Source of the DNA: a bacterium
Lineage (GTDB): Bacteria > Patescibacteriota > Minisyncoccia > JAUYLV01
NCBI GenBank assembly: GCA_030649025.1
Contig: JAUSGO010000031.1
Location: 9,745 to 73,744 of the forward strand
DNA: 64,000 nt
Reading direction: 5' to 3'
The translations under genes and the position numbers were made by a program. Positions 2,785 to 47,365 of this stretch are shown here, in pieces (position 1 is the first letter of the stretch; the number at the start of each line of letters is the position of its first letter). The notes under the pieces are model-generated. The model saw only the letters and a list, made by a program, of their open reading frames with translations. It did no database searches and had not been told where the DNA came from.

Positions 2785-4158
2785 ATGTTCCCGTTGTCAA
2801 AATATAACATCCCGATTAAACTGCTTCTGAAAAATTTTTCCGCGGCCCCAAAAAATACCGGGGTTTATTTCTTTTTGTCCCGCGCAGGAAAAGCCCTTTA
2901 CATCGGCAAGGCTATCGATATTAGAACGCGTCTTCGGTCACACTTTGCAAATGCGGATACGGCTAATCCTGCCAAGGCAAAGCTTCTTAAAGAAACGTGC
3001 GCGGTCCGGTGGGAGCTGTGCGATTCGGAGCCGGAAGCGCTCATTCGCGAGGCCGAACTCATTAAAAAACTGAAACCCAGATTCAATATCCTCCTGCGGG
3101 ACGACAAAAACTATTTTTTTGTCGCTATTACCAAAGAGCCTTTCCCAAAAGTATTTTTGACACACCAGCCTTCCACGCCCTTAAAATCCATAAGTTACGG
3201 ACAAGAAGCCAAATACATCGGGCCTTTTACGGACGGGGGCTCACTCAAACAGACATTAAAACATCTGCGGAAAATTTTTCCTTACTGTATCTGCAAAACA
3301 CCGCATAGACGGCCCTGCCTTGCTGCCCTTCTTGGAAGATGCGCCGGCGCCTGTTGCCTTAAAGAGGCAAGGTTAAAATTAAAAAACTACGGAGAAATTA
3401 AGCGCCGATACCGGCAGGGAATCTTATCGCTCGCGGAAACTCTTGGCGGAAAACGTTATGCGCTAGGCGCCAGGCTTTTGCGCGAAATGAAAATTTCTGC
3501 CCGAAAAAATGAATTTGAAAAAGCAGCGCTCCTGCGCGATCAACTTCGGGCGCTTGAGACAGTTTTTAGACATCGTGCAGTCGTGGCAAACCGGGACATC
3601 AAAGAGGAGCGCGAAAAGGCCTTGAGTCACCTGCAAAAGTTATTAGATCTGCCAAAAGCGCCGCGCCGCATTGAGATGTACGATATGTCGAATATCCAGG
3701 GAACATGGGCTGTCGGATCCATGGTTGTATTCACCGATGGCTTGCCCGACAAAAGCCAATACCGCAAGTTCCGCATAAAAACTGTTCGCGGCATCGACGA
3801 TACGGCCATGATGCAAGAAGTCATCTGGCGCCGCCTGCGGCACAATGAATGGCCGATAGCCGATATACTTGCGGTGGACGGAGGAAAAGGACAAATGAGC
3901 GCAACGCTTACAGCGTTGTACAATACCCAATATCCAATACCCAATATCCAATACATGCCAATCCTAGGATTGGCAAAGGGAAAGGACGAATTACATTACA
4001 TGACATTTGAGGCTAAAAGCTATGAGCTAAAAGCTATAAGCTCTATGCCCCGCTCCCGCCTCCCCCGCCCGCTCCGGCATCTTCTGAACCATCTTCAAGC
4101 CGAAGCGCACCGATTCGCAATTACCTACCATCGGAAATTACGATCTTCCGGAACTTAG
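2785..4158 (+). CDS. uvrC: Excinuclease ABC subunit C (UvrC), C-terminally short and lacking the (HhH)2 domain.
   Basis: N-terminal GIY-YIG motif (GVYFF...YIGKA). RNase H-like endonuclease region (MYDMSNIQG, DGGKGQ, EAHRFAITYHRK). The ORF ends about 150 aa earlier than a typical UvrC. Confidence 0.8.
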   Translation: MFPLSKYNIPIKLLLKNFSAAPKNTGVYFFLSRAGKALYIGKAIDIRTRLRSHFANADTANPAKAKLLKETCAVRWELCDSEPEALIREAELIKKLKPRFNILLRDDKNYFFVAITKEPFPKVFLTHQPSTPLKSISYGQEAKYIGPFTDGGSLKQTLKHLRKIFPYCICKTPHRRPCLAALLGRCAGACCLKEARLKLKNYGEIKRRYRQGILSLAETLGGKRYALGARLLREMKISARKNEFEKAALLRDQLRALETVFRHRAVVANRDIKEEREKALSHLQKLLDLPKAPRRIEMYDMSNIQGTWAVGSMVVFTDGLPDKSQYRKFRIKTVRGIDDTAMMQEVIWRRLRHNEWPIADILAVDGGKGQMSATLTALYNTQYPIPNIQYMPILGLAKGKDELHYMTFEAKSYELKAISSMPRSRLPRPLRHLLNHLQAEAHRFAITYHRKLRSSGT

Positions 4159-9568: not shown

Positions 9569-10624
9569 TCAGATTCGGCTTCGGCTAACCGCAAAGTTGC
9601 GCCATCTGGGGCTTGTGAATTCGCGCCTGCCAAGAATCCCCGCCTTAGCTCCGAAATGCTCCACAACCGAGGTTGCGTTCGCCGAGCCCAGGCGCATAGC
9701 ATATTTAATGACATCCGGCGGGTATATATCGCACACCGCCGCCTTTTTCTTTCTTGCTCCTTGCTCCTTGTTCCTTGTTCCTTGAATCAGCCCCGCCACA
9801 AAACCGGACCCGAAGGCATCCCCAGCTCCCGTACGATTGACCAATTGCTTCTCGCGGAAAACCCCGGCAGTATAGAGATTTGCGCCGTCGGAAACCATAG
9901 CTCCATGCGCTCCATCCGTAAGTACCGCAAGACACGGCATCCATTCATCAATTTTCTTAAAAATGGCCTCGTGTTTCCGATATGGAATACCGGTGATCAT
10001 GCTTGCCTCCTCGCGGTTCATAATAAGCACGTCCACCTGCCGAAGCATGCTTCTAAAATACGCCGCGCCGCGCTTAAGCATGGGAAGCGAAGGATTCAGC
10101 GCCGTGCGGATGCCGTGCGCCCTGGCATACCGCAATGCTTTCTCGCACGTCTTGAATGCACCGCCAGGAAACAGAAAAAACCATCGCGTCTTCAGCTCTT
10201 CCCATGCGATATCTTCCGGAAGAAGGCGTTCGCTCGCTCCCCGATATACTAAAATAGTGCGCTCGCCCCCGGATAGCAGAAGCAGGGAATAGGCCGTGGA
10301 ATATTTTTTTGTTTTCAATAAAAAGCGCGCATCAACATGCTCGCCCAAAAGCCCGCTTCTCACCTCTTCGCCCGACACGTCGCTTCCCACTTTTGCAATG
10401 CATGCGGTTTTCAGTCCCTGCCGGGCAAAGGTCACTGCAGCATTCGTCGCGCCGCCTCCGGTGGTAAAAATTATCCTTGAGACGTCTATCTTTGCTCCTG
10501 CGGGCATAGAGAGCGCCTGTCCGGTCGAAAATTTTCTCTCTTTTCTCAAAACAAACGAGGGGCTTTCTATGAAAGCGTCGCGCGTCGCAGTTCCAATGGT
10601 GATAATGTCGTACACAGGCAACAA
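9569..10624 (-). CDS. PfkB-family carbohydrate kinase (ribokinase-like).
   Basis: TGAGDAF and GG motifs. It carries a low-complexity insert encoded by a ccttgtt tandem repeat at 9740-9790. Confidence 0.8.
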   Translation of the reverse strand: MLPVYDIITIGTATRDAFIESPSFVLRKERKFSTGQALSMPAGAKIDVSRIIFTTGGGATNAAVTFARQGLKTACIAKVGSDVSGEEVRSGLLGEHVDARFLLKTKKYSTAYSLLLLSGGERTILVYRGASERLLPEDIAWEELKTRWFFLFPGGAFKTCEKALRYARAHGIRTALNPSLPMLKRGAAYFRSMLRQVDVLIMNREEASMITGIPYRKHEAIFKKIDEWMPCLAVLTDGAHGAMVSDGANLYTAGVFREKQLVNRTGAGDAFGSGFVAGLIQGTRNKEQGARKKKAAVCDIYPPDVIKYAMRLGSANATSVVEHFGAKAGILGRREFTSPRWRNFAVSRSRI

Positions 10625-10694
10625 AGTGATTGAGTGACCGAGTCACGAAGTGATCGGCATAGGTCTCAACTAGGCTTGAACGATAACAATAATT

Positions 10695-12591: not shown

Positions 12592-12766
12592 GTGCGAGCT
12601 ATTAGGTTTATAGCTGATAACTTATAAGTTTTATAATAAGACGTGGCGGGTGGGGAGTCGTCCGCCAGCAGACGGATGGGGCAGCCGACATATTCCATGT
12701 CTATACCATCCCCTCTTTTTATGTTTTTGTTGCGGCGCGCTTAAGACAATTTTTCGAAGACAAAAA

Positions 12767-13249: not shown

Positions 13250-13305
13250 ACTGCTTGAGCTTCTAGCTTTCGGTTAATAGCTTTTAGAAATATCCATCCC
13301 CAAAA

Positions 13306-13347
13306 GGAGGGTTTCCTATAAGCTACAATCTATGAGCTATAAGCTGA
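13306..13347. repeat. AGCT-rich palindromic intercistronic repeat (TATAAGCT family).
   Basis: Sequence ctataagctacaatctatgagctataagctg. Related copies occur at 24696-24791, 50427-50511, 59466-59537 and 60022-60109. Confidence 0.5.
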
Positions 13348-16151: not shown

Positions 16152-16262
16152 GCAAAAATTTAAAATGCAAAAGTCAAAATGGAAAATTTAGGAATATCGT
16201 GGAAGTTTTTCTTGCAAGAAAAACTTCCACTCCTTAATTTTGATTTTTGATATTTGATTTTT
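16152..16262. repeat. Family-1 palindromic intergenic element: caaaat-repeat arms flanking a perfect hairpin, MITE/REP-like.
   Basis: Core hairpin GTGGAAGTTTTTCTTGCAAGAAAAACTTCCAC at 16209-16240, flanked by (caaaaNN)n on the left and (ttttgaN)n on the right. It is about 90% identical to the copy at 55926-56040. Confidence 0.7.
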
Positions 16263-16267
16263 TATTT

Positions 16268-16708
16268 TTAGGTGCGGAGCAGTTTAAGGCCCAGGCCGAA
16301 AAACAACAACAAAGACACAAGAATAATCCCAAGCACGATGATGCCCAATACGGTAGAAGCGATCATGAGCAGTCCGTAATGAAATCCGTAGCGCTTCCAT
16401 GACCAGTACGCGGGAAGCACTGTAAAGAGCAATACCGCAATGCCCGCGAGCCACGCCACAAGTAATATCAACGGGCCGGACTCCACTCCGCGCGACACCA
16501 CAAGCCAGCGCACCAAAGAAAGCGATGCGCCCAGCGTTGCCACAGTTACAACCGAGGTAAGTGCGGCATTGAGCAGCACTTCATCGGCATGCTCGCTTGC
16601 GTTATGCGGAGCGTTTTCAAGTTTTTTTATGGCAAGTGAAAGCATCGCGGAAGGAAGAATGCCGACGAGAATATATTTTGCAAAAAATTTAAGAAATTTT
16701 TTAAGCAT
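16268..16708 (-). CDS. Polytopic membrane protein, hypothetical.
   Basis: Multiple hydrophobic segments. Confidence 0.4.
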   Translation of the reverse strand: MLKKFLKFFAKYILVGILPSAMLSLAIKKLENAPHNASEHADEVLLNAALTSVVTVATLGASLSLVRWLVVSRGVESGPLILLVAWLAGIAVLLFTVLPAYWSWKRYGFHYGLLMIASTVLGIIVLGIILVSLLLFFGLGLKLLRT

Positions 16709-20305: not shown

Positions 20306-22438
20306 TCACAAAGCTGTGCCACCGCCGCACGAGCCATCGCATTGTATGCTCATATTCTCAATACAAATGTTCGTATTGCATGCGCTGCCCTTGTTTGGGA
20401 CACAACAGGTAGTATTGTCTGGCTGGCAGACGGCCTGCACCCCGGTGCAGGTATTATTGCACGTCCCGCCGCATCCATTATCTCCTCCACATTTTACCGG
20501 CGGACCGGAGCAATTGGGAACACATGCGGCATCGGCAGGGGCAAGGGTAACAACGACGCCCGGCGAGACGCTGCTGTTCCCCGCCGCGTCATACGCTTTT
20601 GCCTGCAAGCGATAGGAACCGTCGTTAATGCTTGAAATATCCCAGTCAAACTCGAAAGATTTAAGATCGTCCCCTCGCCTGCCTGCTCCGATAAGCGCAT
20701 CATTTGCGAGGAAATCAACCCTGACCGCCCCTACATTGTCGCTTGTTACCGCCCAGATAGCGAAATTGTCCTTGAGCGCCGTTACGGGGTTGGTTTGCTT
20801 GGGACTCGTGATATTCACCGTTGGCTTCTGTGTGTCGGCGCCGGGGAAAGGCGCTATGCCAACTTTGGCAAGGCGCTTTTGCAACAATACCCTGCTTAAA
20901 GCGTTGTACCCGAAAGGGTCGGAAAGCGAACGCATGAGAGAGCTTGGAGACGATCGGTAATAAACCGTTTTGCCCGCGCATCCGGCGATACAGGCTGTAA
21001 TATTATATGTGGCGTTATCCCAAAGCGGGCAGGTTTGCGACCCATCGCAGTTTCTTCCCGAAAAGTATGGCGTTGGCTTGTTGTGGTATTCGTCAAGCAG
21101 ACTGCCGAAGGAGTGGCTGAACTCATGTACCGCGGTTCTGGCTACAAAATTCCTTTTCCCCCCAACCGTTGTAACAAATGCCTGTCCTCCAACGCCAAGG
21201 TCCATCTCATTATGGTTTCGATCGTAAGACGATATGCTGGTATCGAAATACGCGCAGCCGGTAGGAGCATCCAACGTACCCGAGCGAACAAATGTTAAGA
21301 CCGTATCGTACGGCCCTTGAGAATTCGTAAGGGCTGTTACGGCGCTTTGATTGCAGGAATAGGCGGGAGCGCATTCGTTCTGGGAACAGTTAAGACGCGT
21401 ATCGGAAAGCGGGAGAAAGCCGACCGGTTCAATGCTGATGGCCGAAGCGAATGCGGCATATGGCTCAAGAGAAAGGAGAAGATCCCTGAACGCCTGCCAG
21501 TCTCCGTCAAACTCCTCCTGGCTCGGATAATTCACGCCGAGCACCGCAATACGCAGCATTCCGCCTGCCGCGCGCGCGGTATTCGGAGCGAACTTGAACG
21601 TCATTTCGGATGCGATGCCGGAGGAACCGTGCCGAAGCGCGAATTTTCTGTGTGATTCTTGGATCGCACTTGCAACAGTCTGTTGGGTAATGAAATTTCC
21701 AATCGCATCGGTAATGACAAGCGTTTTGGCTCCGGTAATTGCCGGCAAAACCATGCCGGCGTTCAATGATCCGATATCCCCCCCGACAAGCTGCGCGGGG
21801 TCAATATTGCCAGATGCATCCAGGACCTCTCCGATCACGGTATTGGGAGCATTGAACGGATGCACAAAAAGCGTCTCACCGTTCACATCCAGAAGTTTTG
21901 CGATATATTCTCCACTGTCGAGCGTCGGTGGCGTATAAAATCCGTCGAATGGCGCTCCGGCTGCAGAAATAACGCTCCCTTCGCCATCGCCGGAGATGTT
22001 CATGTCAACAAAGATCATTGGCGCAGATGCCGGACCGCCTTCTTCTCCGTTACTACCGGTAACTCCGGCCGGGCTTCCCGTGCCGACGAAAGTGCCTACT
22101 ACCTGCACAAAGACCCTTGCGAGAATAAGTATGGTAAACCCTATGACGGCCCACAGCAGGATTTCCTTCGCTTTTCGATATCGTTCTTCGTTGCCAAATG
22201 AGAGCATCATGCGCACACCGGCATACACAATAAGAAAGGCCGCTGCAATGATGCCGATAAAGACGAGAAAATTAACAAGATTGGTGATAAGTTCTTTAAC
22301 AGATCTTGCATTCAAAAAATTCGGTATGGACGCACTGCCGAAAACCACTTGCGCATGCGCTAGCGCCGGTACGGCAAGTGCCAAAACTATAAGAACCAAA
22401 AAAACCAAAGAGATTTTTTTCATATTTTTCCGCATCAA
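20306..22438 (-). CDS. Secreted zinc metallopeptidase (HEFSH...DEY, M64-like) with an N-terminal VirB2/TrbC-like two-helix pilin module and a C-terminal Ig-like Cys-rich region.
   Basis: HEFSHSFGSLLDEY motif. The N-terminus (signal peptide, then helix-SFGNEERYRKAKE-helix) is homologous to the stand-alone pilin-like gene at 43858-44253. Confidence 0.5.
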   Translation of the reverse strand: MMRKNMKKISLVFLVLIVLALAVPALAHAQVVFGSASIPNFLNARSVKELITNLVNFLVFIGIIAAAFLIVYAGVRMMLSFGNEERYRKAKEILLWAVIGFTILILARVFVQVVGTFVGTGSPAGVTGSNGEEGGPASAPMIFVDMNISGDGEGSVISAAGAPFDGFYTPPTLDSGEYIAKLLDVNGETLFVHPFNAPNTVIGEVLDASGNIDPAQLVGGDIGSLNAGMVLPAITGAKTLVITDAIGNFITQQTVASAIQESHRKFALRHGSSGIASEMTFKFAPNTARAAGGMLRIAVLGVNYPSQEEFDGDWQAFRDLLLSLEPYAAFASAISIEPVGFLPLSDTRLNCSQNECAPAYSCNQSAVTALTNSQGPYDTVLTFVRSGTLDAPTGCAYFDTSISSYDRNHNEMDLGVGGQAFVTTVGGKRNFVARTAVHEFSHSFGSLLDEYHNKPTPYFSGRNCDGSQTCPLWDNATYNITACIAGCAGKTVYYRSSPSSLMRSLSDPFGYNALSRVLLQKRLAKVGIAPFPGADTQKPTVNITSPKQTNPVTALKDNFAIWAVTSDNVGAVRVDFLANDALIGAGRRGDDLKSFEFDWDISSINDGSYRLQAKAYDAAGNSSVSPGVVVTLAPADAACVPNCSGPPVKCGGDNGCGGTCNNTCTGVQAVCQPDNTTCCVPNKGSACNTNICIENMSIQCDGSCGGGTAL

Positions 22439-23675
22439 TTTATGCTTCTTGTTCCCCGGAGCACAGAGGCCCGCTCAAGACGCCGCAGCGCAACGGCATA
22501 TGCCGCGTATTTCAATGATGTACGGGAAGATTTTTTTTCCTGAAGCACCGCTTTTAGCCCTTCCGTCATAAGTTTGCGGAGTTTTTCGTGCACTTCTTGC
22601 TTCTCCCAGTAATACCCCGTGCGGTTCTGCACCCATTCCAGGTAACTTACGGCGACTCCGCCGCTATTTGCAAGAATGTCGGGGATTACGGAAATGCGGC
22701 GTTTTTCCAGCAATGCATCCGCCTCCGGAGTTGTCGGGCCGTTAGCAAGCTCCAGGATCAGCTTTGCTTTGACGCGTTTGGCGTTTTCTTTTGTCAGCTG
22801 GCTCTCAAGAGCCGCTGGAACCAGAACGTCAACCGGAAGCTCGAGAAGTTCGGCGTTGGTCAAGTTATATTTCGGCAATTTTTTTCCATTCTTCTTTAAA
22901 GAAAGAAGTTTTTTTACGGCAAGCCCCTGCGCGTTAAACCAGGCGCCTTTTGAATCGGATATCGCAACGATCGTATGTCCCCGCTCCTGAAGTAGCTGCG
23001 CCGCAATTCCTCCGACGTTCCCCATGCCTTGTATGGCAATGGCAAGTTTTGAATTTTGAATTTTGAATTTTGCTTGAGGTACTCCTCAAGTGTATAGATG
23101 CCGCCGAGCGCCGTCGCCTCTTCCCGGCCCTGGGAACCGCCAAGCTCCGCGGGCTTTCCCGTAAATGCTCCCCATGCGGATACGCCCATAAGGCGCGAGT
23201 ACTCGTCGGCCATCCACGCCATGATGCGCGCATCGCTCCCTACGTCCGGCGCGGGTACATCTATATCCGGACCAATGCTGCGCCAGAAGGCCCTTACCCA
23301 TGCGCGCGAGAGTCTTTCCAGCTCCTTGGGCGAAAGTGCTTTTGGGTCAACGCCGATGCCACCTTTGCCGCCGCCCATGGGGATGCCTATAACGGCACAT
23401 TTAAGCGTCATGCCAAGCGCCAATCCCTTTACCTCTTCCGAATCGACATCTGGATGAAACCGGATACCGCCTTTGTAAGGACCGCGGAGATTATTGTGCT
23501 GTATCCGATATGCGTCAAAAACCGCGGGCTTGCCATTGTCTAGCTTGATGTGCAACTTCTTGCGCAAAATCCTATCCGGGTTTTTGAGAACGTTAAGAAC
23601 AGAAGGCTTAATATGCGCCTTCTTTCCGGCCCGCCACAGACCGCGCATCATGTTTTCGAAAAGTGAAGCGCTCAT
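22435..23675 (-). pseudogene. gdh: Glutamate dehydrogenase split by a frameshift at a (caaaatt)3 heptanucleotide repeat. It may be a sequencing error.
   Basis: ORF 22914-23675 carries KGGIRF, GGGKGG and GREEAT. ORF 22435-23025 carries GNVGG onward. The second frame read upstream gives KLAIAIQGMGNVGG. A fourth heptamer copy would restore one continuous frame. Confidence 0.7.
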
Positions 23676-24694: not shown

Positions 24695-24695
24695 G

Positions 24696-24791
24696 AAATA
24701 AGATTAGCTTACCAGCTTGTTAGCTTATTAGCCCAAAAAGTTCGAAATTTCCTAGAAAGCTAGTCAGCTAGAAAGCTAGTCAGCTAGAAAG
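24696..24791. repeat. AGCT-rich intercistronic repeat (tandem agctagtcagctagaaagct units).
   Basis: Located between the ROK kinase stop and the trxB start. Confidence 0.5.
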
Positions 24792-25688: not shown

Positions 25689-25756
25689 GATCAGACGTAA
25701 TCACGCATTGCGGACTTCGGATTGAGATAATCCGTGATCCGTAATCCGTGATTCGC

Positions 25757-31501: not shown

Positions 31502-31645
31502 ATACTGAAAATTTCTAATGTCTAATGCCTAAATAGAGCTTGGGATGGATTTTTTTAATAATCTGCTTTGTTGGTATTTCGGAAAAAATGCTTGGTTGGT
31601 AAGTATGATGTAAAATAATGGCTCAATAATGGGTTTTTTTAATGC

Positions 31646-35966: not shown

Positions 35967-36309
35967 ATCTTTTCCTCCTGTGATTTATGATGTAAATGTG
36001 CGTAAGGTATGAAAAGCTTATGATAAAAAATGCCGGAAGTCAACCCCGTTAGAGATCCGATACCTATTGCATTGGCACCCCCCCACCTCGGCTCTTAACA
36101 AAACTCTTGCTGGACAAAGAGGAGTTTTTTTGATATGAGGAACCCGAAAAGTTATGAGCGGAGCACCCTCCGCTCTTTTTCGTTGCCGTTGCGCGCTTGC
36201 AAAAAAAGGTGGCAGCGTGCTACAGTGTCCTTTCGGGCGCACAAATTCAAAAGGCTTGCCGTATGCGCCGCAGAAGGTCTTTTACAAATTCTTCCGGAGG
36301 AGACATTCA

Positions 36310-37128: not shown

Positions 37129-37282
37129 ATATTGATATTACTTAATAATTATTAATTATCTGTGAGTTCATTATACCTGATTACACTTAAATTTACCATG
37201 GCACTTCGGTGGAAGAGAATTAGGCATGTTTGTACAACGCTGTGCTCCGGCGGCAGGATTCGAACCTGCGACCAAGGGATTA

Positions 37283-37818
37283 CACGTGATCCTCTGCTTT
37301 CGTAGAGGCGCGGACTATATCTTCACCATGATCCGACTATAACCGGACTTTAGGTGCTCTGGTATCTAGTCTCTACGGCGCCCCACCTAAGTCTTGCTTT
37401 GCAAAATTGAGGCAGGTTCCCACGGTATTACCCGTTCTTGCGAACAAGGGCTTCACCGTTATCCCAGAGAGTTCATTCCTAAGTTTCCTTAGGAAGCTGC
37501 GTAAAGCTGGCTTCGATTTCTCGATGGCAATTCGCACACACCAATATACATTTATCTAGCTCCCGCTTAATAGCGTCCCATGAGCGCGTATAACCTTTGT
37601 CACCGATTGCAAACTCTTTAGAAGCTGGGTTGCGGTGATGTAGATCAAGTGCCCAGATGCATTTTTTATATCCGCATACTTGGCATTTTCCTCCTTTGTA
37701 CTCCACCGCAAGCATCTTGAGTTTCCTTCTGCGCTTTGCAACCGCTTTCTTCAGGTATTCCGCACGATCACGGTATGTGCGTTTTTCGACCTTTGCCATA
37801 TAAAGCCAGCCAATAGCC
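37283..37818 (-). mobile_element. Group I intron (IC3-like core) in the tRNA-Asn anticodon loop, between U35 and U36, carrying an HNH homing endonuclease gene.
   Basis: The 3' core reads GUAGAGACUAGAUACC...CACCUAAAG...UAUAGUCGG with an omega-G before exon 2. It matches my recollection of the Azoarcus tRNA-Ile intron P7-P9 (GUAGAGACUAGACGGCACCCACCUAAGG). The exon-1 end is U and the exon-2 start is UAA. Confidence 0.7.
37479..37799 (-). CDS. HNH homing endonuclease encoded inside the group I intron.
   Basis: CQVCGY...LDLHHRNP...CANCH is an HNH motif flanked by Cys pairs. Start set at MAKVEK, because the longer ORF-track N-terminus overlaps tRNA exon 1. Confidence 0.65.
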   Translation of the reverse strand: MAKVEKRTYRDRAEYLKKAVAKRRRKLKMLAVEYKGGKCQVCGYKKCIWALDLHHRNPASKEFAIGDKGYTRSWDAIKRELDKCILVCANCHREIEASFTQLPKET

Positions 37819-39090: not shown

Positions 39091-40887
39091 TTACCGGGGG
39101 GCGGCTATCATACTCTGTTTTTCGCGTTTTTGCAACTCGCCGGATACCCGGGTGAATTCTTCAAGGATCACGGAGCGCAGCGAGACATTCGCGGATTTGA
39201 CCTCCTGGCCCAACGTTCTCAGGCGCTCACGAAGCTTGCGTAGCGAAAGTTCATGGATGAACGCCTCCATTTCTTTTACGGGATTGATCTTCGGAAGCGT
39301 CTCGGTATAACGGTCCGCCTTAAGCAAAAGTTGGTCCAGATGCATCTGGAATTCTTCCGAAACAACATCCGGCGCTTCCTTGGAAGAATCGGTTTGTATG
39401 CTGGGTATAATATGAAGGAAGAGCGAGCGCGTATGTTCCGAAGAAAAAAGGTCCTGCGTGAGGTGCTGGGCAAGAAGGCGGCCCGCATCGGGATACTTCA
39501 CAAGGAACGCAATAAGAAATTCCTCTATGTCCGACCATCGGCTTCGGACAATTTGAGCAGGAACGGAAGAAGTTTGAGATGGCTCGCTTCGATGTTCTTG
39601 GGGAATCTTTTGCATCGCCTCGTGTAAAAAACGCTCTTCAACGCCGATGGATCCTGCCAGTTTTGCCAAATAATGGCCCTGCATGACGGGGTTGGGGAAA
39701 ATGCGGATAAAAGGAAGAAGATCGTCGGTAATTCTGCGCTTGCCTTCCGGCGTTTTGGTATCGCTTACAAAAGAAGCTTTCTGCAGGTAATAATCCATTG
39801 CGGGCATTGCCTCTTCAACCGCACGAAGCCAGCTTGATGCATCCTGCAAAACCAGATCGGCAGGATCCTTTCCCCCTTCGATGCGGATAATGCAGACCGC
39901 GATATCGCAAGACAAAAGAAGCATGACGGAGCGCTTGGTTGCCAAGATCCCTGCTTCGTCGCTGTCGAAAGCCGTCGAAACATTTGAAGCGTACCGCTTA
40001 AGGAGTCTGGCGTGCTCCTGGGTAAGCGCGGTACCGGATGTCGCAACCGTGTGCAGGATGCCGGCCTGATGGGACAAGAGAAGATCGAACTGACCTTCCA
40101 CAAGCACCGCATGGTCTTTTTCCCGGATAGCCTGTTTAGCCCTGTCCAGACCGTAAAGAAGCCTGCTTTTGCTATATATGAGTGTTTCCGGGGTATTTAC
40201 ATACTTTGCCGGCGTCATGGAAGACCCTGCCGGATGGCGAGACTCGTAGTGCCGTCCGGAAAACCCGACCGCATTTCCCTGAATATCAAAAAGCGGAAAC
40301 ATGATGCGGTTATGAAAACGGTCTCTCCAGTCTCCCCGTTCCGTCCGTATGGCAAGCCCCGCGTGTTCTATCTCCTCCGGCCGGAACCCTTTGAATTTAA
40401 GATGACGCAAAAGACCGTCCCATGAAGCGCTCGGCGCATATCCAAGCCTGAAGTTCTCGGAGGTATCGGTGGCTACTCCCCGACCTATAAGATATTCTCG
40501 TATCTCGCGCTCCGTCTCCTTAGCCAATGTTTCCTGGTAGAACGCAACGGCGGCTTTAAGAGTGTCGTACATGCGCGCGCGCTCGCTCCGCACCCGTGGA
40601 TCCTCCTGCCTAAGGACAACGCCGGCTCGATCGGCCAAGATACGCAGAGCATCGGGGAATTCAACGCCGTCCATTTTCATCACGAACGAGAACATGTCTC
40701 CCCCGAGGCCGCATCCGAAGCAGTGCCATATCTGCTTGTCTTTCGAAACATAAAACGATGGGGTTTTTTCATGGTGAAAGGGGCAGAGCCCTTTTAGGTT
40801 TGCTCCGACCTGATTTAGTTTCATGTAGCCCCCGATGACATCGGCCACATCAAGGCGATTTTTTACTTCTTCGGATGGGGAAAGCAT
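39091..40887 (-). CDS. dnaG: DNA primase.
   Basis: CHC2 zinc finger [11 protein letters not shown]...CFGCG, TOPRIM domain, and a C-terminal helicase-binding region. Confidence 0.9.
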
Positions 40888-40904
40888 ACTCGTGAGTAAA
40901 ACTC

Positions 40905-40990
40905 AAAAGATAAAAGTCAAAACTACAACTTAAAAATCAAAATTTTCTTCCAGAAAATTCTTGTAATCAAAAAATTCTCATTTTACGTTC
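40905..40990. repeat. Partial family-1 element: left caaaa-repeat arm plus a small hairpin.
   Basis: aaaactcaaaagataaaagtcaaaactacaacttaaaaatcaaaattttcttccagaaaatt. Confidence 0.4.
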
Positions 40991-40991
40991 A

Positions 40992-41480
40992 CTACCGGGC
41001 ATACACAACGCTCACTTTCGTTTCATTTTGCGAAAGGGCAAAAAGAACCACATGGACCGATGCAAGCCCTTTGGTGCCCCGAAGCGTCGTATATCCTTCC
41101 CCGGATGTTCTGAAACCAAGCGTCCAGCCCTGTGTCCTAAAAACTTCAAGATAAAAAGTTTCCAGTTTTTCAAGCGGCAGGGAGGCGCGATATGCGACGC
41201 TTTGCTGGAGTGCTCCGGTAAAAGCGGTCGTCTCTTCCGCCGAAAACCCCCGCTGGGCTGAAGGCGCAATAAATATCCGGGGGAAGGCTTCGGGAAGGGT
41301 GCCAAGCCGAAGAATATCCTTTCCTGCTTTTGGCAGGGTAAAGCCCGATAAATCTGCCGGATCCGATTCCTTTCTGCTACCTATAAAATCCCTGTACAAC
41401 CCAAAAAATATGGGGTGCGTGTAATATATAACACCCGTAAGTACAATGCCGCAAATAATGGGAATAGCGCTTCGACGCAT
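40992..41480 (-). CDS. Membrane-anchored hypothetical protein.
   Basis: N-terminal TM segment. Confidence 0.4.
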   Translation of the reverse strand: MRRSAIPIICGIVLTGVIYYTHPIFFGLYRDFIGSRKESDPADLSGFTLPKAGKDILRLGTLPEAFPRIFIAPSAQRGFSAEETTAFTGALQQSVAYRASLPLEKLETFYLEVFRTQGWTLGFRTSGEGYTTLRGTKGLASVHVVLFALSQNETKVSVVYAR

Positions 41481-41510
41481 AACTGAATTTGTTTTTCAAC
41501 TTAACAGCTT

Positions 41511-43838
41511 CTAAGGAACTAATTGTCCGCACACATATACCTGAAATCCCAGGAACGTCATCATTGAGACAAAAACAGGCTTTGCAAGGAGCAGCACCAA
41601 AAGCCCCAAGACTCCCGCCCCAAGCGCCTGTTTGCCCTTTTGAACCCGCGCGGGATTTCCAAGCGAAAGGAAAAGGGAGAATCCCGCAAGCACGATAAGA
41701 ATGGCAAATGAGGGAATACCGTACCGGACGAGCACCTTATACACTTCGCAGAGCGAGTAATCGGGAACGCCGCTGACGGGAGGCGCTGTGGGTCCCACAA
41801 TATCTTCCACCGTAAGCGTGCAGGAAGCCGTATTGGCTTTCTGGGGACTGGAACTGTCCGTAACATCAACCGTTGCGTTGTAAATACCGGGATCCGGAAA
41901 TGTTTGGTTAAAGGCGCATGTGCTTTTGCCGTCAATGAGGGGGCTGTCCGAATGCCATGCGCACGAATAAGGCTCCGTGCCGTTTGAAACGTTAATGCTG
42001 AAATCTGCCGTTCCGTCTTCGCTGATAAGGCTTGGAGACATGCGGCATGAGGCATCAAGTATTGATACGCATCTGCCTTCTGCCGTGCATACCTCGCCCT
42101 CTCCAGAACAGGTGCCGCAATCCAGGCATCCGGTCTGGTTATCCGGATTTGGATCGCCGGGAATACAGGCATCACAGCCGTTGGACCACGCACCGCACTG
42201 GGCTCCACCGCTAGCGACCGTGCTACAGGTCTTCGGAATACAAGGGATTTTGGTAAACTCTATAAGAAATTCTGTGGGACGCACCGCATCCAGAGTCCCA
42301 TTAAGTAGTTCGGTGCACGGCTTCTCATCTGTGATATCAACGAGTCCGGGAGTGCCCGCAGAAGAGTTTGGATCAGTGGTTCCCCCCGGCGTAAAATTCG
42401 GGTCATAGGTTCCCCCCGGAGAATAGGTCGGATAATAGCCCCCTCCCTGCGCAAAACTTTGGTTTACGATTCCCGGCGCAAAGCCTTGAGCAATAGTATC
42501 TTGTCCCATATCAAAGCTCTGGTCGATAAGGCGCAATTTGCAGGTGTAATTGGCAAAAAGCGATTCGGTGCCCGGCGGCACGCTCAACGTGTAGGAACCA
42601 AGTTCCATCTTATCATCGTCAAAGGCCAAGGCGGGGGTTGTTGTTGCTGTACCCGGAGCTCCCGCGGTGCTCTCTTTGCGCTCATACGGCGAGGGGCCCT
42701 GGAGAATGAAGGGAAGCCCCAGCTCCGTATCCGGAGCCTCGGCCTTTACGGAACGCACGATGATGCGTCCCGTCACGTTGTAGGCAAGACATAATCCATC
42801 TATTCCCGCATCATCGTCAATTGAGAATTTAATTCCGTAAATGATCCGCCGGGAAGGAGGCAGATTGGGATCGGTAATATCCACTACCGGCGCGGAGTAT
42901 TGGCACTCATTGTACCATCCGCTGTTGCTTCCCGATGCTTTACATCTATTACTCTCGCTCCGCGCATTCTTGTTGGGATCGGGCAGGTCGCTTACAAGCC
43001 GCACGGTTTTGAGATCCATGCCGCCTCTATAGTCACGTTCATCACAGGTACCGTTGTAATCAGCCGGGCTAAGATTATCCAATCCCCTGCCGCTCCAGCC
43101 AAGCAAGGGCCCTATAAGCGTGCCCGATGCCTTATCAACCTTCCGGAATATCTGAAAATAGCAGGGAAGTGTAGGAGACCCATCATCCATATCATCTATA
43201 TCATAACCCCTGCCGCCGCTCGTGCGCGAAGGAGTGAAGCGCCATCCGACGGCATATTTGTCTCTTGGCACAAAAACTTCATAGTCCTTCCTGTCGGGCA
43301 AGTCTCCTGAATTGCACATTCTGGCATGTTGTGCTCCGAGTTGTCCCAATCCCGTAGGGTTATATTTTATCGCGCCACCGGGCTGCAATTCTCCTTCATA
43401 GACATTGGTCATGCATTCTTTATCGTCCGACCCGAAACCGAAGCCGACCATGGCGTATCCTTGTGGACCTACAGTAAGGGCGCCGGGTCCTTCAAGCGGC
43501 GTTCTATTATTTAAATACCAGCTGATGAGTTTGTAGGTAACGAATATGGTAGTAAGAACTATGCCTACAATCGGTATAACATTCGAGCTTAAAATACTGG
43601 AGCCTCCTCCGCCACCTAACGATACCTCTTTTATGGGTTCGAGAAGAATACTGACAGCATTCGCGTCTTGAACGGGATTGAGCGGATCTGCTCTTGCTTC
43701 TAGTGCAGTACTCCCTTCACAGACCGCGGCGATATCCTGGGCTAGAGCTTCCTTGGGTGCGTGCGCCAAAAGCACGCTTAAAAGAATTGCGCCGGCTATT
43801 AAAATTCTTTTATTGTAGAGCATACCAAGAAACATCAT
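41511..43838 (-). CDS. Giant surface protein with a PKD-like Cys-rich extracellular region and a C-terminal VirB2/TrbC-like two-helix pilin module.
   Basis: Signal peptide. C-terminus ...FAILIVLAGFSLFLSLGNPARVQKGKQALGAGVLGLLVLLLAKPVF is homologous to the adjacent 131-aa pilin-like protein (ARRRTAKTTLEAAVIGLLVLLFAKSII). Confidence 0.5.
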   Translation of the reverse strand: MMFLGMLYNKRILIAGAILLSVLLAHAPKEALAQDIAAVCEGSTALEARADPLNPVQDANAVSILLEPIKEVSLGGGGGSSILSSNVIPIVGIVLTTIFVTYKLISWYLNNRTPLEGPGALTVGPQGYAMVGFGFGSDDKECMTNVYEGELQPGGAIKYNPTGLGQLGAQHARMCNSGDLPDRKDYEVFVPRDKYAVGWRFTPSRTSGGRGYDIDDMDDGSPTLPCYFQIFRKVDKASGTLIGPLLGWSGRGLDNLSPADYNGTCDERDYRGGMDLKTVRLVSDLPDPNKNARSESNRCKASGSNSGWYNECQYSAPVVDITDPNLPPSRRIIYGIKFSIDDDAGIDGLCLAYNVTGRIIVRSVKAEAPDTELGLPFILQGPSPYERKESTAGAPGTATTTPALAFDDDKMELGSYTLSVPPGTESLFANYTCKLRLIDQSFDMGQDTIAQGFAPGIVNQSFAQGGGYYPTYSPGGTYDPNFTPGGTTDPNSSAGTPGLVDITDEKPCTELLNGTLDAVRPTEFLIEFTKIPCIPKTCSTVASGGAQCGAWSNGCDACIPGDPNPDNQTGCLDCGTCSGEGEVCTAEGRCVSILDASCRMSPSLISEDGTADFSINVSNGTEPYSCAWHSDSPLIDGKSTCAFNQTFPDPGIYNATVDVTDSSSPQKANTASCTLTVEDIVGPTAPPVSGVPDYSLCEVYKVLVRYGIPSFAILIVLAGFSLFLSLGNPARVQKGKQALGAGVLGLLVLLLAKPVFVSMMTFLGFQVYVCGQLVP

Positions 43839-43857
43839 AACTCAATATACTATATCA

Positions 43858-44253
43858 TCAACACGTCATGGACGTAAGCCGTAAGCCGATGAAATGCAGG
43901 AAGATAATGATAATGCTTTTTGCAAAAAGAAGTACAAGGAGCCCTATGACAGCTGCTTCAAGCGTGGTTTTTGCCGTGCGCCTTCTTGCCTCGTCCCCCT
44001 GCGAGGTCAAAAACCTTATGCCCGCAATGCCGATAATGATGACAACCACAATAAGTCCGAGGGTAACGAGCCAATTTGCCGCAGTACAAAAAATACTATA
44101 GAAAGAAAGAGATGGCAGAGGGTTTTTGGTGGTGAGGTCGTAGATCTCTTCTGCAAGAGCGCCCCTCGCCCTAAAAAAAACAATGCCGGCTAAAATAAAA
44201 AAGGCGGCAGGAAGCGTAGACAATTCGATATTAAACTTTTTAAAAGGATTCAT
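43858..44253 (-). CDS. VirB2/TrbC-like pilin, about 100-aa mature protein with helix-loop-helix topology.
   Basis: Signal peptide cleaved near ARGALA/EE, then two hydrophobic helices separated by the RFLTSQGDEARRRTAKTT loop. Confidence 0.45.
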   Translation of the reverse strand: MNPFKKFNIELSTLPAAFFILAGIVFFRARGALAEEIYDLTTKNPLPSLSFYSIFCTAANWLVTLGLIVVVIIIGIAGIRFLTSQGDEARRRTAKTTLEAAVIGLLVLLFAKSIIIIFLHFIGLRLTSMTC

Positions 44254-44410
44254 GGGTGGATGCCGTATGCCCGGCGGAGGGTGCGGGGTTCGAACTCGCG
44301 GTTCCTGGATAGCTTTTCACTCATTGAAGACATTGTAGCTACCCGCGAAAAGCCAAGACTTTGGCTTTTCGCCCCTTGCGGGTCGCACGCTTTCTGTTGA
44401 AAAACCTAGC

Positions 44411-44498
44411 TGGCGGAGGCGAGAGGATTCGAACCTCTGATACCTTGCGGTATACTCGCTTTCCAAGCGAGCGCACTCGACCGCTATGCGACGCCTCC
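44411..44498 (-). tRNA. tRNA-Ser(GGA) with a long variable arm and encoded CCA.
   Basis: GGAGGCG...CUCGC-UUGGAAA-GCGAG...long variable arm...AGAGG-UUCGAAU-CCUCU-CGCCUCC-G-CCA. Confidence 0.85.
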
Positions 44499-44671
44499 TT
44501 AATGTGAAAATAAGCGCACTAGTTCCTGGGTCGCCTCTCATCCATTAGAAACAAAGTAGCAACCCGCGGAATCTGAAAACCTTCAGATTCCGCCCATTAT
44601 GAGAACCCTCCGTCCCCTCGTCTTACAACCATTACCCAAAAGACTTCCCCACTCTCCAAGGGGGTCCTTTG

Positions 44672-45304
44672 CTACTGCGGTGTCAGCTGGTACATCGCCC
44701 GAGAGCCGGGGTTCTGGCCGAATGCGATTGTGTAGCCTGCAAGCGCCTGCTGGCTGTTTCGCTCATCAATATCGAAAATGACTTCTCCTTTTTTTGTGGC
44801 ACCGGCACCAACTCCATAATTCAGGAATTCGCTCGACCATCCCGCGGGCGGCATAATGGACCCATCGGGGGTGATGAGGCGCATATCGGCATTCGTGAAA
44901 GGACCCGAGGGCCCTTTTCCGACATTAAGGATCTCGAAGCTCACTACGACAAATTTTCTTCCCGGAGCAATCGGCTTTTGATCATTATAGGTATCGCGGT
45001 ACTCTACCTTCAATACATCAAGCTTTAATTCCGCTCCTCCCGCAACGGTGTAGGCGACATTTTCGGGACCTTTCACGGGAGCGAATTTGTCTTTCTCCGG
45101 GCTTAGCCGATTGATGAGCCCCACCACCGCAAAACCGAGGCCAAGAATGATGACGGCAACCAAAATAATGCTTGCGACAGGGAAGATCTTGCTTTTTTGG
45201 AATTGCTTCCACATGTCCCCCAGCGAGGAACCGGGAGAGGACGGGGATGAAGACGGTAAAGGAGGACGAAAATTCTGTTGTGGAGGATTGATGTCCATAT
45301 CCAT
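44672..45304 (-). CDS. Membrane-anchored DUF4352-like protein.
   Basis: Pro/Ser-rich N-terminus, one TM segment and a beta-sandwich domain. Confidence 0.45.
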   Translation of the reverse strand: MDMDINPPQQNFRPPLPSSSPSSPGSSLGDMWKQFQKSKIFPVASIILVAVIILGLGFAVVGLINRLSPEKDKFAPVKGPENVAYTVAGGAELKLDVLKVEYRDTYNDQKPIAPGRKFVVVSFEILNVGKGPSGPFTNADMRLITPDGSIMPPAGWSSEFLNYGVGAGATKKGEVIFDIDERNSQQALAGYTIAFGQNPGSRAMYQLTPQ

Positions 45305-45330
45305 TGAGATTAGTGAAATAAATTAGAGAT

Positions 45331-46239
45331 TTAAATTTTTATTCCTCGTAATGCCGCAATACGCTCTTCGATGGGCGGATGCGTCATGAAAAGTTTTGCG
45401 AACCAGCTTACGCGCCCATCGCGCCCTGCCAAGGGAGAAGCGATATAGAGGTGCGCGGTGGCGTTGGACGCCATCTCGAGTTTCGGCGCGTAAGATATTT
45501 TTTCAAGCGCTCGCGCAAGTCCTTCCGGATACCGCGTGACCAAGGCTCCCGCAGCATCGGCCAAAAATTCCCTCCTGCGCGATACCGCAAACTGTATCAT
45601 CTGTGCCGCAAGCGGGGCCAAAAGCGCAAAAAGAATTCCAAGCGCCAGGAAAATAATGCCGGCACTGCCCCCTCCTTCCCTGTCACGTCGTCCTCTTCCT
45701 CCAAAGAAAGAAAACCGGAAGAACCAATCGGCAAGCAGAACCACCAGTCCGGCCAATATCGCCACAACGGTAGACACAAGCGTGTCGCGATTGCCAATGT
45801 GACTCATCTCATGCGCCAACACGCCCTCAAGCTCGCTTTTTTCAAGCGTCCGCATAATACCTTCCGTCACCGCTACCACCCCATGCGCCGGATCTCGCCC
45901 AGTTGCAAAGGCGTTCAGAGCGTGGCTCGGGAGCATAAAGAGCCGTGGCATGGGAAGCCCCATCGTCAGGGCAAGATTTTCAACAATACGGTAAAACTCC
46001 GGGTTGTCCTTCTTTTCGATGGGACGCGCCTGATGAAGCGCTAAGACAATTCTATCAGACCACCAGTAAGATGCAATGCTCATCGCGGAACTGAACATGA
46101 CCGCGAAAAATAATATTTCCGGGCTTCCGTACACCCGAGAGAACAGCCACCCGAGCATAATGACAAAACCAAAAAAAAGGCTTATGAGAAGCCAGGTTTT
46201 ATGGATATTCGATTCGGCTTGTTGGTAAAGAGTCGGCAT
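45331..46239 (-). CDS. htpX: Zinc metalloprotease HtpX (M48).
   Basis: HEMSHIGNRD HExxH motif and four TM segments. Confidence 0.9.
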   Translation of the reverse strand: MPTLYQQAESNIHKTWLLISLFFGFVIMLGWLFSRVYGSPEILFFAVMFSSAMSIASYWWSDRIVLALHQARPIEKKDNPEFYRIVENLALTMGLPMPRLFMLPSHALNAFATGRDPAHGVVAVTEGIMRTLEKSELEGVLAHEMSHIGNRDTLVSTVVAILAGLVVLLADWFFRFSFFGGRGRRDREGGGSAGIIFLALGILFALLAPLAAQMIQFAVSRRREFLADAAGALVTRYPEGLARALEKISYAPKLEMASNATAHLYIASPLAGRDGRVSWFAKLFMTHPPIEERIAALRGIKI

Positions 46240-46245
46240 GCTTTT

Positions 46246-46545
46246 CTAAAGAAAACTTCCATACCTTCCGCCTAACGCCTTTTGTAATTCCACATCAAGC
46301 GTCTTCAGCATACCTCGGTATGACCTATCGATGACCGGCGTAACATTTCCCAGGAACTGCTTCAGTTCTTTCTCGTCCATGCCCCGGAATTGCCCATGTT
46401 CATTCAGATACCCGGCCGCCATAGCCCGTATTTTCTGAAATTCCTCATGAGGAACACCGCGATGCTTGCGGGAGACCGCACTTAGCACCTTCTCGAATTC
46501 TTCTTCCGAAACAACGCGAGACGGCGGATTGTTGAATAGACCCAT
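46246..46545 (-). CDS. Hypothetical protein.
   Basis: Lies between lemA and htpX. Confidence 0.4.
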   Translation of the reverse strand: MGLFNNPPSRVVSEEEFEKVLSAVSRKHRGVPHEEFQKIRAMAAGYLNEHGQFRGMDEKELKQFLGNVTPVIDRSYRGMLKTLDVELQKALGGRYGSFL

Positions 46546-46560
46546 AAGCGCTTCGCTTAA

Positions 46561-46667
46561 ATTTAAAACTCAAAAGTCAAAAATCAAAATTTTGGAGTCT
46601 TGTGAAGGTTTTACGCGTAAAACCTTCATGCCTCAACAATTTTACATTTTGAGATTTACATTTTGCA
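46561..46667. repeat. Family-1 palindromic element, diverged copy.
   Basis: caaaa repeats, hairpin GTGAAGGTTTTACGCGTAAAACCTTCAT, then ttttga-type repeats. Confidence 0.5.
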
Positions 46668-47228: not shown

Positions 47229-47365
47229 ATATTTTTAACTATGTTAATGCTGTAAAATACCCCAACATCAGTATACCAAATGGAAGAAAGTCTAGCAAAA
47301 AAGCCTCAACAGAGGCGCACCTTGAGACTCCGGGCTAGATTTAAATGCTCTCCGGCTTTACCGCC

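Follow-up and report, generated by a model that had tools for sequence, protein, structure and literature searches.

A 64-kb window of a Patescibacteria (candidate phyla radiation) genome, the whole stretch of DNA analysed here, carries four copies of a palindromic element of about 110 nucleotides (nt) that lies in gene spacers and consists of 7-base repeats around a hairpin. By analogy with known repeats this element, here called family 1, appears to be a non-coding, quasi-palindromic extragenic repeat of Patescibacteria that resembles the repetitive extragenic palindromic (REP) and short tandemly repeated repetitive (STRR) sequences of other bacteria, an assignment we hold at about even odds. 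Our preferred account of it, to which we give a probability of about one half, is a selfish or structural DNA palindrome that grows through slippage in steps of 7 nt and through copying of the palindrome, and that is transcribed with its neighbours as a generic hairpin. An initial annotation, made from the sequence alone, had described a dispersed repeat as opposed to a locus-specific regulatory motif, and this description holds: the element occurs in both orientations, orthologous spacers differ between related genomes, and its core is found in 110 metagenome stretches.

Anatomy of the window copies

The plan of family 1 is a (CAAAANN)n arm, an AAGGWAT half-site, a GT...AC hairpin, a ACTCCWWAATTTTG half-site and a (NNTTTTG)n arm. 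The arms contain 3–5 tandem units, CAAAANN on one side (A-arm) and NNTTTTG on the other (T-arm), while the genome-specific hairpin is bracketed by two related half-sites, AAAATKAAGGWAT and ACTCCWWAATTTT. The copies take up the whole spacer, from stop codon to next start codon, in either orientation. They are listed here with folding energies of the whole element on the coding strand and with E-values from a DNA profile built from an alignment (A2) of 28 family members, c1–c4 among them.

16152–16269, plus strand: c1, whole spacer upstream of rpiB; −35.6 kcal/mol, z −7.7; profile E 2.9e-17
~16154–16189: A-arm of c1, AAAATGC AAAAGTC AAAATGG AAAATTT
16190–16198: half-site of c1, AGGAATATC
16199–16230: perfect 32-nt palindrome of c1, GTGGAAGTTTTTCTTGCAAGAAAAACTTCCAC
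16229–16249: junction 21-mer of c1, ACTCCTTAATTTTGATTTTTG; the T-arm reaches 16269
55926–56040, plus strand: c2, whole pilT–pilC spacer; −33.7 kcal/mol, z −4.7; profile E 3.5e-17
55933–55964: A-arm of c2; junction 21-mer at 56001–56021, T-arm to ~56036
55974–56002: hairpin of c2, GTGAAAGTTTTT-CTTCA-AAAAACTTTCAC, with a 12-bp perfect stem
51232–51349, minus strand: c3, between the genes for a glycoside hydrolase (GH1) and an ABC ATPase; −29.3 kcal/mol, z −4.1; profile E 3.1e-16
51277–51307: hairpin of c3, imperfect, with 7 perfect pairs; a longer stem needs a G-T pair or a mismatch
46555–46670, minus strand: c4, diverged, between the gene for LemA and a 99-aa open reading frame (ORF); −29.3 kcal/mol, z −2.9; profile E 6.2e-18
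46603–46628: perfect 26-nt palindrome of c4, TGAAGGTTTTACGCGTAAAACCTTCA
40898–40990, unstranded: c5, upstream of dnaG; arm-like heptamer array (AAAACTC AAAAGAT AAAAGTC AAAACTA ...) with a weak 9-bp AT hairpin

Over about 105 aligned nt, c1 and c2 are 90% identical, c1 and c3 86%, c2 and c3 89%, and c4 is 71–76% identical to the other three. Their 30-nt flanks, included in the alignment, are unrelated (20–45%), and the similarity fades through degenerate heptamer units up to the neighbouring stop and start codons. The A2 profile finds exactly four full copies in the window (E 1e-16 to 1e-18); on the opposite strand the same four score clearly lower (E 1e-6 to 1e-9), which means that the palindrome is imperfect and that each element has a polarity. 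The consensus orientation of c1 lies on the plus strand, antisense relative to its flanking genes, and that of c3 on the minus (coding) strand. The inverted heptamer arms, (CAAAANN)n and (NNTTTTG)n, that the initial annotation had described are clearly present: the heptamer pattern CAAAANNCAAAANNCAAAA with at most one mismatch has 14 matches where 0.06 are expected, and Tandem Repeats Finder (TRF) reports period 7 in both arms of c1–c4.

The same annotation had listed five copies, each with a perfect hairpin of 12–14 bp. All five stretches lie where it placed them and c1–c4 are true homologues, while the fifth (given as 40905–40990) is only a heptamer array; membership of c5 in family 1 finds no support (51–60% identity, profile E = 1, folding no better than shuffles). 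Stems of the claimed length occur in three of the five, c1, c2 and c4; c3 and c5 fall short of it. The stem of c4 has a sequence unlike that of c1–c3, with the pairing retained. RNA folding, which had been suggested as a check, turns c1–c4 into long interrupted hairpins on the coding strand (z −2.9 to −7.7) and separates them from c5 (z −0.29).

Distribution in other genomes and shape of the hairpin

The window PilT is identical to a protein of a metagenome-assembled genome (MAG) at NCBI and 62–67% identical to PilT of the nearest named relatives, Sungbacteria, Jorgensenbacteria and other Parcubacteria-group bacteria. A comparison of orthologous spacers, also foreseen in the initial annotation, was made at pilT–pilC in relatives with 83–88% PilT identity (loci are given below by L numbers), and the element proved absent or different there. 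L026–L029 carry a different heptamer palindrome, (ATTTTCN)n...(GAAAAYT)n; in L024 the spacer measures 570 nt and holds other repeats, with only a T-arm remnant of family 1; and in L030 it is a GC-rich spacer of 65 nt with no element. L024 does have a diverged family 1 copy in the non-orthologous pilM–pilN spacer (A2 profile E 7e-5). In addition to GAAAAYT, the relatives use other heptamer units, such as the AACATGA family in L024 and the TAACCGC family in L026.

A Logan short-read assembly apparently derived from the same organism, as judged by identical proteins, breaks exactly at c1 and c2, whereas the diverged c4 is crossed intact by one of its contigs (L142). The 21-mer at the junction of core and arm that is common to c1–c4, ACTCCWWAAYTTTGATTTTTG, is present in 110 metagenome stretches and has no match (0) in viral contigs. 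Because the element is dispersed, sits at a non-orthologous position in L024, recurs in these 110 stretches and breaks the assembly at c1 and c2, copies are not confined to conserved orthologous loci, the pattern that would have indicated a regulatory motif. In the collection of species-representative genomes, the window-specific hairpin pattern GAATATCGTGRRAGTTTTT gave 22 matches against about 17 expected by chance according to our own estimate; two of the matches were inspected and are not elements, and the collection yielded no close relative of the source genome.

After deduplication the 110 stretches reduce to 78–79 distinct ones, with about 45 full elements, about 10 half elements (hairpin and T-arm), about 10 variants belonging to a longer repeat, and the rest isolated. 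The isolated matches, some 12 without arms or hairpin, probably arose by chance or are coding sequence. The longer repeat, of at least ~420 nt, accounts for about 25 of the 110 matches; it is 87–99% identical between contigs (L032, L059, L060, L077, L080, L083, L089, L092, L107 and others), in which GTCATTCCGAACCCCTTGCGGGTGAGGAATC is followed by only the right half of family 1, GTCGGCCCTGCCGAC-TCC-TTAATTTTGATTTTTGCACTTTGATTTTTGAT (hairpin, ACTCC and T-arm); these contigs encode large proteins, unlike Patescibacteria.

A MAFFT alignment of 28 full copies gives a whole-element consensus, AAATCAAAATGCAAAACTCAAAATGCAAAATKAAGGWATTWC-GTCCCGC...GCGGGAC-TCCATAATTTTGATTTTTGATTTTTGA, that includes the left arm and the left half-site, both of which lie outside the search pattern. 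Genes of the window and of the element-bearing contigs are only 30–53% identical in their best protein matches, and the host of the L093 element is annotated as a Patescibacteria group bacterium. Going by the contigs characterised, family 1 thus appears to be spread over many distantly related Patescibacteria.

The hairpin itself varies by genome. Among the 79 distinct hits, 37 have a best perfect stem that begins with GT and ends exactly at the AC of ACTCC, and the stems include GTCCCGC, GTCGC, GTCCC, GTGGC and GTTGCCG, with GTGRAAGTTTTT in the window. Copies on one contig share a stem subtype (L115, L129, L058), and c1–c3 share a single hairpin type that was met nowhere else. The tetraloops are self-complementary, forming a perfect DNA palindrome, in 6 of 11 cases (P = 2e-5); GAA triloops account for 8 of 21 (P = 6e-10), often as GCGAAGC, a DNA mini-hairpin of unusual stability, and no GNRA or UUCG loop is found among the element hairpin loops. 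Two L115 copies differ only by an inverted loop. Across 37 elements the sense fold is the more stable one in 24 (Wilcoxon p = 0.08, confounded with element polarity), and the window elements alone have no folding bias between sense and antisense. Taken together, the palindromic tetraloops, the GAA triloops, the inverted loop and the lack of a significant folding asymmetry suggest a central hairpin shaped at the DNA level rather than by selection on the RNA fold. Pairing between the arms is limited to 5-bp CAAAA/TTTTG blocks, with the two variable heptamer positions usually mismatched, so the arms are conserved more as direct repeats than as complements.

Dispersal and hairpin shape might also reflect an enzyme. 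In that case family 1 would be a classical miniature inverted-repeat transposable element (MITE) or an enzyme-mobilised REP, moved by a transposase or an HUH enzyme like the REP-associated tyrosine transposases (RAYTs) that is encoded elsewhere and recognises the hairpin together with the ACTCC/GGAGT half-sites, or else the subterminal heptamers. The multiple copies, in both orientations and at non-orthologous positions in related genomes, suit such a history, and so do the genome-specific hairpin, its conserved flanking motifs and the conserved, asymmetric, unpaired WATTWC; a genome-specific hairpin with conserved flanks resembles the substrates of HUH enzymes that bind hairpins. The perfect palindromes and the GAA triloops hint at hairpins of single-stranded DNA, and Y1_Tnp (PF01797) domains are present in Patescibacteria proteins (P0208, P0239). 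We nevertheless regard mobilisation as unlikely. In the c1–c4 alignment the elements have neither sharp ends nor a target-site duplication, and no pair of empty and filled sites was found. No transposase was seen beside any copy, the ORFs of the window and the loci having had no systematic screen, and the sister families described below are alike in architecture and not in sequence, which one enzyme would not explain. P0208 and P0239 are leucyl-tRNA synthetases in which PF01797 (Y1 transposase, IS200-like) is a precomputed Pfam assignment among other extra C-terminal domains.

Gene context and possible roles

The initial annotation placed the copies between co-directional genes, which is correct yet uninformative, as almost all window genes lie on the minus strand. 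Its neighbours also stand for rpiB, LemA, the ABC ATPase and GH1 genes, PilT and PilC, and DnaG; HtpX (Peptidase_M48), in contrast, is encoded two genes downstream of LemA, and the 99-aa ORF comes first. Forty distinct intergenic copies could be classified by context: 17 lie between co-directional genes in one orientation and 10 in the other, 7 between divergent and 6 between convergent genes. Settings checked by eye include divergent genes (L049), convergent genes (L100), a T-arm before rpsL (L091) and the space between two tRNA genes (L051). In the divergent L093 spacer each T-rich arm abuts a start codon, and boxes TGGTACAAT and CATAAT flank the element (by eye). Arm ends meet or overlap the stop codons of inward-pointing genes and the start codons of outward-pointing ones, so the element simply fills whichever spacer holds it.

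Type IV pilus genes (pilB, pilT, pilC) also have family 1 or sister elements next to them, in no fewer than four unrelated genomes (L111 at ~2140; L092 at ~5750; L038/L118 at ~4510; the window at 55926–56040 and 59461–60109), an adjacency that may be beyond chance.

Promoter-like boxes are found next to several copies. A −10-like box lies 4–19 nt upstream of the A-arm in L085 (TGTGGTATAAT), L093 (TGGTACAAT), L070, L102 and L137, and a further one (GGGGTATAAT) was read by eye from the listing of L075; judged from these boxes, the element would be a 5′ leader at all six loci. Both divergent loci, L093 and L049, have −10 boxes upstream of the element. Such boxes precede the A-arm in 7 of 17 sense cases against 3 of 17 antisense controls, a difference that is suggestive only. 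Within the window c3 alone is followed by an independent −10-like box, TGGTATACT, located downstream on the coding strand 6 nt before the ATG of the ABC gene; the arms of the other copies run into the start codon. Since these arms abut the start codons of rpiB, pilC and the 99-aa ORF without room for a promoter, the copies must be transcribed through if the downstream genes are expressed. As a general explanation, we rejected a promoter inside the T-arm for leaderless starts: the last TGAATT/TAAATT-like hexamer lies 1–14 nt from the ATG and matches TATAAT poorly.

Translation signals offer little room for a Shine-Dalgarno (SD) role. An SD-like tetramer (GGAG, GAGG, AGGA) at positions −20 to −4 precedes only 7 of 65 window genes, so that a start codon without an SD is the rule here, and many genes have a TGnTAtAcT- or TATAAT-like box 5–8 nt before the ATG, which suggests that the organism is largely leaderless and SD-independent. 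The initial annotation had drawn attention to AAGGAG far upstream of start codons. The motif is indeed present about 80 nt before the rpiB ATG; a distant SD function is not a meaningful reading of it, because SD-like motifs are so rare in the window, because the strand of the motif varies (two of the four copies have AAGGAG on the coding strand, the remaining two on the opposite one) and because it is one half of the symmetric pair AAGGAGT/ACTCCTT.

The order of an A-rich arm, a hairpin and a T-rich arm also recalls a terminator. Family 1 could be a bidirectional intrinsic terminator, or a terminator-plus-leader cassette under selection, in which arms and hairpin are an elaborated A-tract, stem and U-tract active in both directions and the T-arm also serves the next gene as an AU-rich leader. 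In metagenome copies the stems are mostly GC-rich (for example GTCCCGC...GCGGGAC), the element starts directly after stop codons and is found between convergent genes as well (L100), c3 has its independent −10 box after it, and plain terminators of the window are equally symmetric, A5-stem-T5, as in AAAAATGCCCCTTGCA...TGCAAGGGGCATTTTT at 52627–52826. However, the U-run is separated from the stem by TCCATAA or GATATTCC, and the 8-nt tails after the stem (TCCTTAAT or GATATTCC) contain only 3–4 T, where our terminator scan asked for at least 5 T in the tail. A scan for promoters and terminators over 40500–60400 called none of the elements in either class, and neither class was enriched. Moreover, the hairpins in the window are rich in AT, copies lie between divergent genes and, as 5′ leaders, downstream of −10 boxes (L093, L049, L085; L075 by eye), and efficient termination would silence rpiB, pilC and the 99-aa ORF, because no room for a promoter follows the element. 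We therefore find a terminator function doubtful. Covariance models of Rfam matched no element in the window or in six element-bearing loci, either at the gathering threshold or at E ≤ 1. We read the element as neither an SD nor a canonical terminator, and no promoter is recognisable in it.

A different function could lie in the arrays themselves. As a cis-acting expression module, they would offer tandem sites to a protein, cold-shock-domain or S1-like, that binds single-stranded RNA or DNA with a footprint of about 7 nt and that would control the translation of genes without an SD, the opposing arm masking the sites. The essentially SD-less genome fits this, the arrays end 1–15 nt before start codons, distant hosts share the conserved heptamer unit and half-sites, and the arms are kept as direct repeats rather than as perfect complements; a like proposal has been made for the TAACTGA repeats upstream of starts without a ribosome-binding site (RBS) in Beggiatoaceae (PMC4679880). 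On the other hand, the elements abut stop codons equally and also lie between convergent genes, they face the downstream gene in both orientations (17 versus 10), sister families have unrelated heptamers, and arrays occur within coding regions. Overall, we consider this module quite improbable.

In consensus orientation three successive A-arm units CAAAATG put an ATG into every reading frame, and the T-arm unit TTTTGAN does the same with TGA. A transcript started in the A-arm could thus take up ribosomes without a leader and let them off ahead of the real start codon. Units of family 2, described below, and of the relatives also contain TAA, TAG or TGA, which may in part reflect ascertainment, given that stop-bearing arrays cannot survive inside genes. 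That family 1 and its sisters together form a lineage-wide cis-acting expression module of SD-less, largely leaderless Patescibacteria, with 7-nt sites for a single-strand-binding protein, leaderless loading at the A-arm and release a few nt before the start codon, strikes us as very improbable.

We thus return to a selfish or structural palindrome of DNA. Its arms would lengthen and shorten in 7-nt steps through slipped-strand mispairing, and its centre would be made and maintained by intrastrand template switching or by inverted duplication of DNA. Gene conversion, or a hairpin-recognising HUH/RAYT-like enzyme, could spread or homogenise copies within a genome. The element is presumably co-transcribed with its neighbours as an intercistronic spacer, 3′ tail or 5′ leader, and its RNA could form an interrupted hairpin of 40–45 pairs (−25 to −37 kcal/mol). 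Because of this potential hairpin, its most likely effect would be a generic one like that of REP sequences, whereby folded mRNA ends or junctions influence read-through, processing or stability.

Several points weigh against this account. The half-sites and the arm unit are conserved across hosts with less than 55% protein identity, beyond what neutral slippage would lead one to expect, which argues for selection or horizontal spread; conservation of the half-sites across the phylum is the observation that the account handles least well. The weakly maintained pairing of the arms agrees with direct repeats recognised by a protein no less than with a role as a hairpin. Among the loci compared, neither a precise insertion nor an empty-site pair turned up, and no 7-nt length polymorphism between strains was seen in near-identical pairs of metagenome loci, all of which have equal unit numbers and none of which is informative. 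Conservation across hosts whose proteins are 30–53% identical is hard to square with pure junk; it would imply either an unrecognised signal for expression or DNA metabolism in an uncultured superphylum or a compact selfish element without a recognisable transposase.

Sister families and comparison with known systems

Other spacers, all examined on the coding strand, reuse the plan of a tandem short-unit array, a short centre and an inverted array. The unit pair AGCTTAT/ATAAGCT defines sister family 2, in which inverted heptamer arrays surround a centre that is not conserved. These and other arrays of the window are listed below.

13250–13347, unstranded: sister family 2, fills its gene spacer; −29.7 kcal/mol, z −2.6; TRF
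50427–50511, unstranded: sister family 2; −33.7 kcal/mol, z −5.7; TRF
59461–59550, unstranded: sister family 2, upstream of pilB; −29.4 kcal/mol, z −6.1; TRF
60022–60109, unstranded: sister family 2; −28.8 kcal/mol, z −3.2; TRF
24695–24791, unstranded: version with an 8-nt unit, CTTTCTAG CTGACTAG ... / ...TAAGCTAA; z −2.8; TRF period 8/16
25689–25756, unstranded: small palindrome with unit ATCACGG/ATTACGG, fills its gene spacer; TRF
10625–10694, 12592–12633, 31502–31532, 37129–37159: single arrays directly before start codons
3921–3954, 4012–4042: in-frame period-7 arrays inside uvrC
9753–9784: in-frame period-7 array inside pfkB
23047–23072, minus strand: (CAAAATT)3.7 on the coding strand, inside the glutamate dehydrogenase gene; TRF; A2 profile E 0.03, arm part only

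In the TRF rows for the window, 28 of 45 have period 7 or 14, and the autocorrelation of intergenic DNA peaks at lags 7, 14 and 21 (z 3.8, 2.9 and 3.4), while coding DNA has only period 3. The arrays in uvrC and pfkB are built from CAATACC, GCTAWAA and CAAGGAR; those in UvrC lie within the Pfam match to the RNase H-like endonuclease domain and lengthen the domain little. In the glutamate dehydrogenase gene (gdh, 22435–23675) the reading frame switches within the (CAAAATT)3.7 array, giving one ORF for the N-domain and another for the C-domain, and one more CAAAATT unit, or two fewer, would restore a single ORF. The split may mean that gdh is a pseudogene or is phase-variable, or that the assembly has collapsed at this point. 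Exact-protein look-ups returned no record for the N-terminal ORF of this gene or for the window ABC ATPase.

Although the genomes of Patescibacteria are tiny and their spacers very short, by our reading roughly one third of 43 window spacers are largely heptamer arrays or heptamer palindromes. In practical terms, since the elements break short-read assemblies and one disrupts gdh, they matter for the quality and the annotation of MAGs.

The window and its relatives contain further repeats of other kinds. An unrelated one, GGGGTAAAGAGCTTGTTGCTGAAATTCG... with TTAGCYAYSACRTTGAGCACCCCGCCCTCTAAGC, has three copies 66–88% identical, in long spacers near small ORFs. In the relatives, long spacers are packed with TGTCATTCCCGCG..GCGGGAATC and GTCATTGCGAG...GCGGCAATCTC hairpin repeats, which are absent from the window. 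The spacer upstream of pilT is bracketed by CCCGTTAGAGGC...GCCTCTAACGGG.

49039–49105, 61591–61657, 63050–63116; also 48773–48810, 61473–61510, 62917–62943: the GGGGTAAAGAGCTTGTTGCTGAAATTCG/TTAGCYAYSACRTTGAGCACCCCGCCCTCTAAGC repeat
36043–36083, 52655–52781, 57121–57258: another spacer repeat, of inverted ACCCCGTTAGAG / CTCTAACGGGGT pairs
L024 9046–9567, 11081–11650, 12857–13537, 14809–15367; L026 6966–7320: spacers with the hairpin repeats of the relatives
37291–37539, minus strand: sub-threshold Rfam match to the group I catalytic intron (37.6 bits, E 5e-6, full model length)

The 350-nt spacer with the intron match also holds a tRNA-like T-arm and acceptor end (GGTTCGAATCCTGCCGCCGGAGCA), at which ARAGORN calls no tRNA; the region may be an intron-interrupted tRNA gene.

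Among known systems, the bidirectional terminators and the inverted pairs of DNA-uptake sequences (Neisseria, Pasteurellaceae) share with family 1 a symmetric A-rich/stem/T-rich order after genes and a short motif in inverted pairs, respectively. Family 1 differs from the terminators in that its T-run is not adjacent to the stem and in that it also occupies 5′ leaders and divergent spacers. Uptake sequences are very dense and occur in coding and non-coding DNA, whereas family 1 amounts to about 7–8 half-sites in 64 kb, in spacers only.

Bacterial MITEs (Correia/NEMIS of Neisseria, RUP, ERIC) are likewise non-coding, dispersed and of inverted-repeat structure, about 100–150 nt long, capable of long RNA hairpins and co-transcribed, as family 1 presumably is. 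The dispersal expected of a MITE is found here, with four copies in 64 kb, 110 metagenome stretches, differing pilT–pilC spacers and the non-orthologous L024 copy. However, family 1 lacks terminal inverted repeats with defined ends and lacks a target-site duplication, no direct repeats being found at the borders of c1–c4 in the alignment with 30-nt flanks. To our knowledge, no insertion sequence is related to it. The initial annotation had offered MITE or REP as a label; the former, in its strict sense, does not apply, and REP-like is the better of the two, by analogy only.

With the REP sequences and bacterial interspersed mosaic elements (BIMEs) of Enterobacteria and Pseudomonas, which are associated with RAYTs, family 1 has in common that it is a short, multi-copy, imperfect palindrome in spacers between genes, in both orientations, with species-specific sequence, assembly breaks and probable co-transcription. 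It is longer (~110 nt versus 20–40 nt for REP), has arms of tandem heptamers, and carries the consensus WATTWC-GT[stem]...[stem]AC-TCC in place of a conserved GTAG-type 5′ tetranucleotide. It also occupies divergent spacers and 5′ leaders, its hosts are Patescibacteria, and no RAYT turned up, no systematic domain screen of the ORFs having been run.

Heptamer repeats are a known and unexplained feature of several bacterial groups. Tandem heptanucleotides are known in cyanobacteria (Calothrix/Nostoc), and CCCCAGT, TTGGTCA and CAACAGT are among the described units. The units found here (CAAAANN/NNTTTTG, AGCTTAT and others) differ from these and likewise from TAACTGA and GGGAATC, which we took from two published descriptions (PMC4679880 and PMC4692102). 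TAACTGA repeats lie just before RBS-less start codons in Beggiatoaceae, Cyanobacteria and Bacteroidetes (PMC4679880), their sets nearly all direct and oriented towards the start codon, with one inverted set among 170. In Xanthomonas (GGGAATC) and Nostoc, polymerase slippage has been proposed as the cause of heptamer repeats (PMC4692102), and a 7-nt simple sequence repeat (SSR) of Haemophilus acts through the 5′ untranslated region (PMC12721329). Family 1 resembles such heptameric SSRs and STRRs in its 7-nt unit, in the 2–6 tandem copies, in a strongly intergenic position with occasional copies in ORFs and occasional inverted pairs, and in often ending a few nt before an RBS-less start codon; it may also resemble them in rapid, strain-specific change. 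It differs in that the inverted pairs are obligate and enclose a core and hairpin, and in that the whole unit of ~110 nt is homologous and dispersed.

Literature searches, among them ones for Patescibacteria combined with MITE, with leaderless or with Shine-Dalgarno and ones for the motif strings by themselves, found no description of family 1. Set beside the known systems, what is new is that the arrays form obligate inverted pairs enclosing a conserved core, that one small genome houses several families of this design, and that the sequence of one family is conserved across distant Patescibacteria. Family 1 thereby adds a structured, palindromic example to the long-unexplained excess of 7-nt repeats in bacteria.

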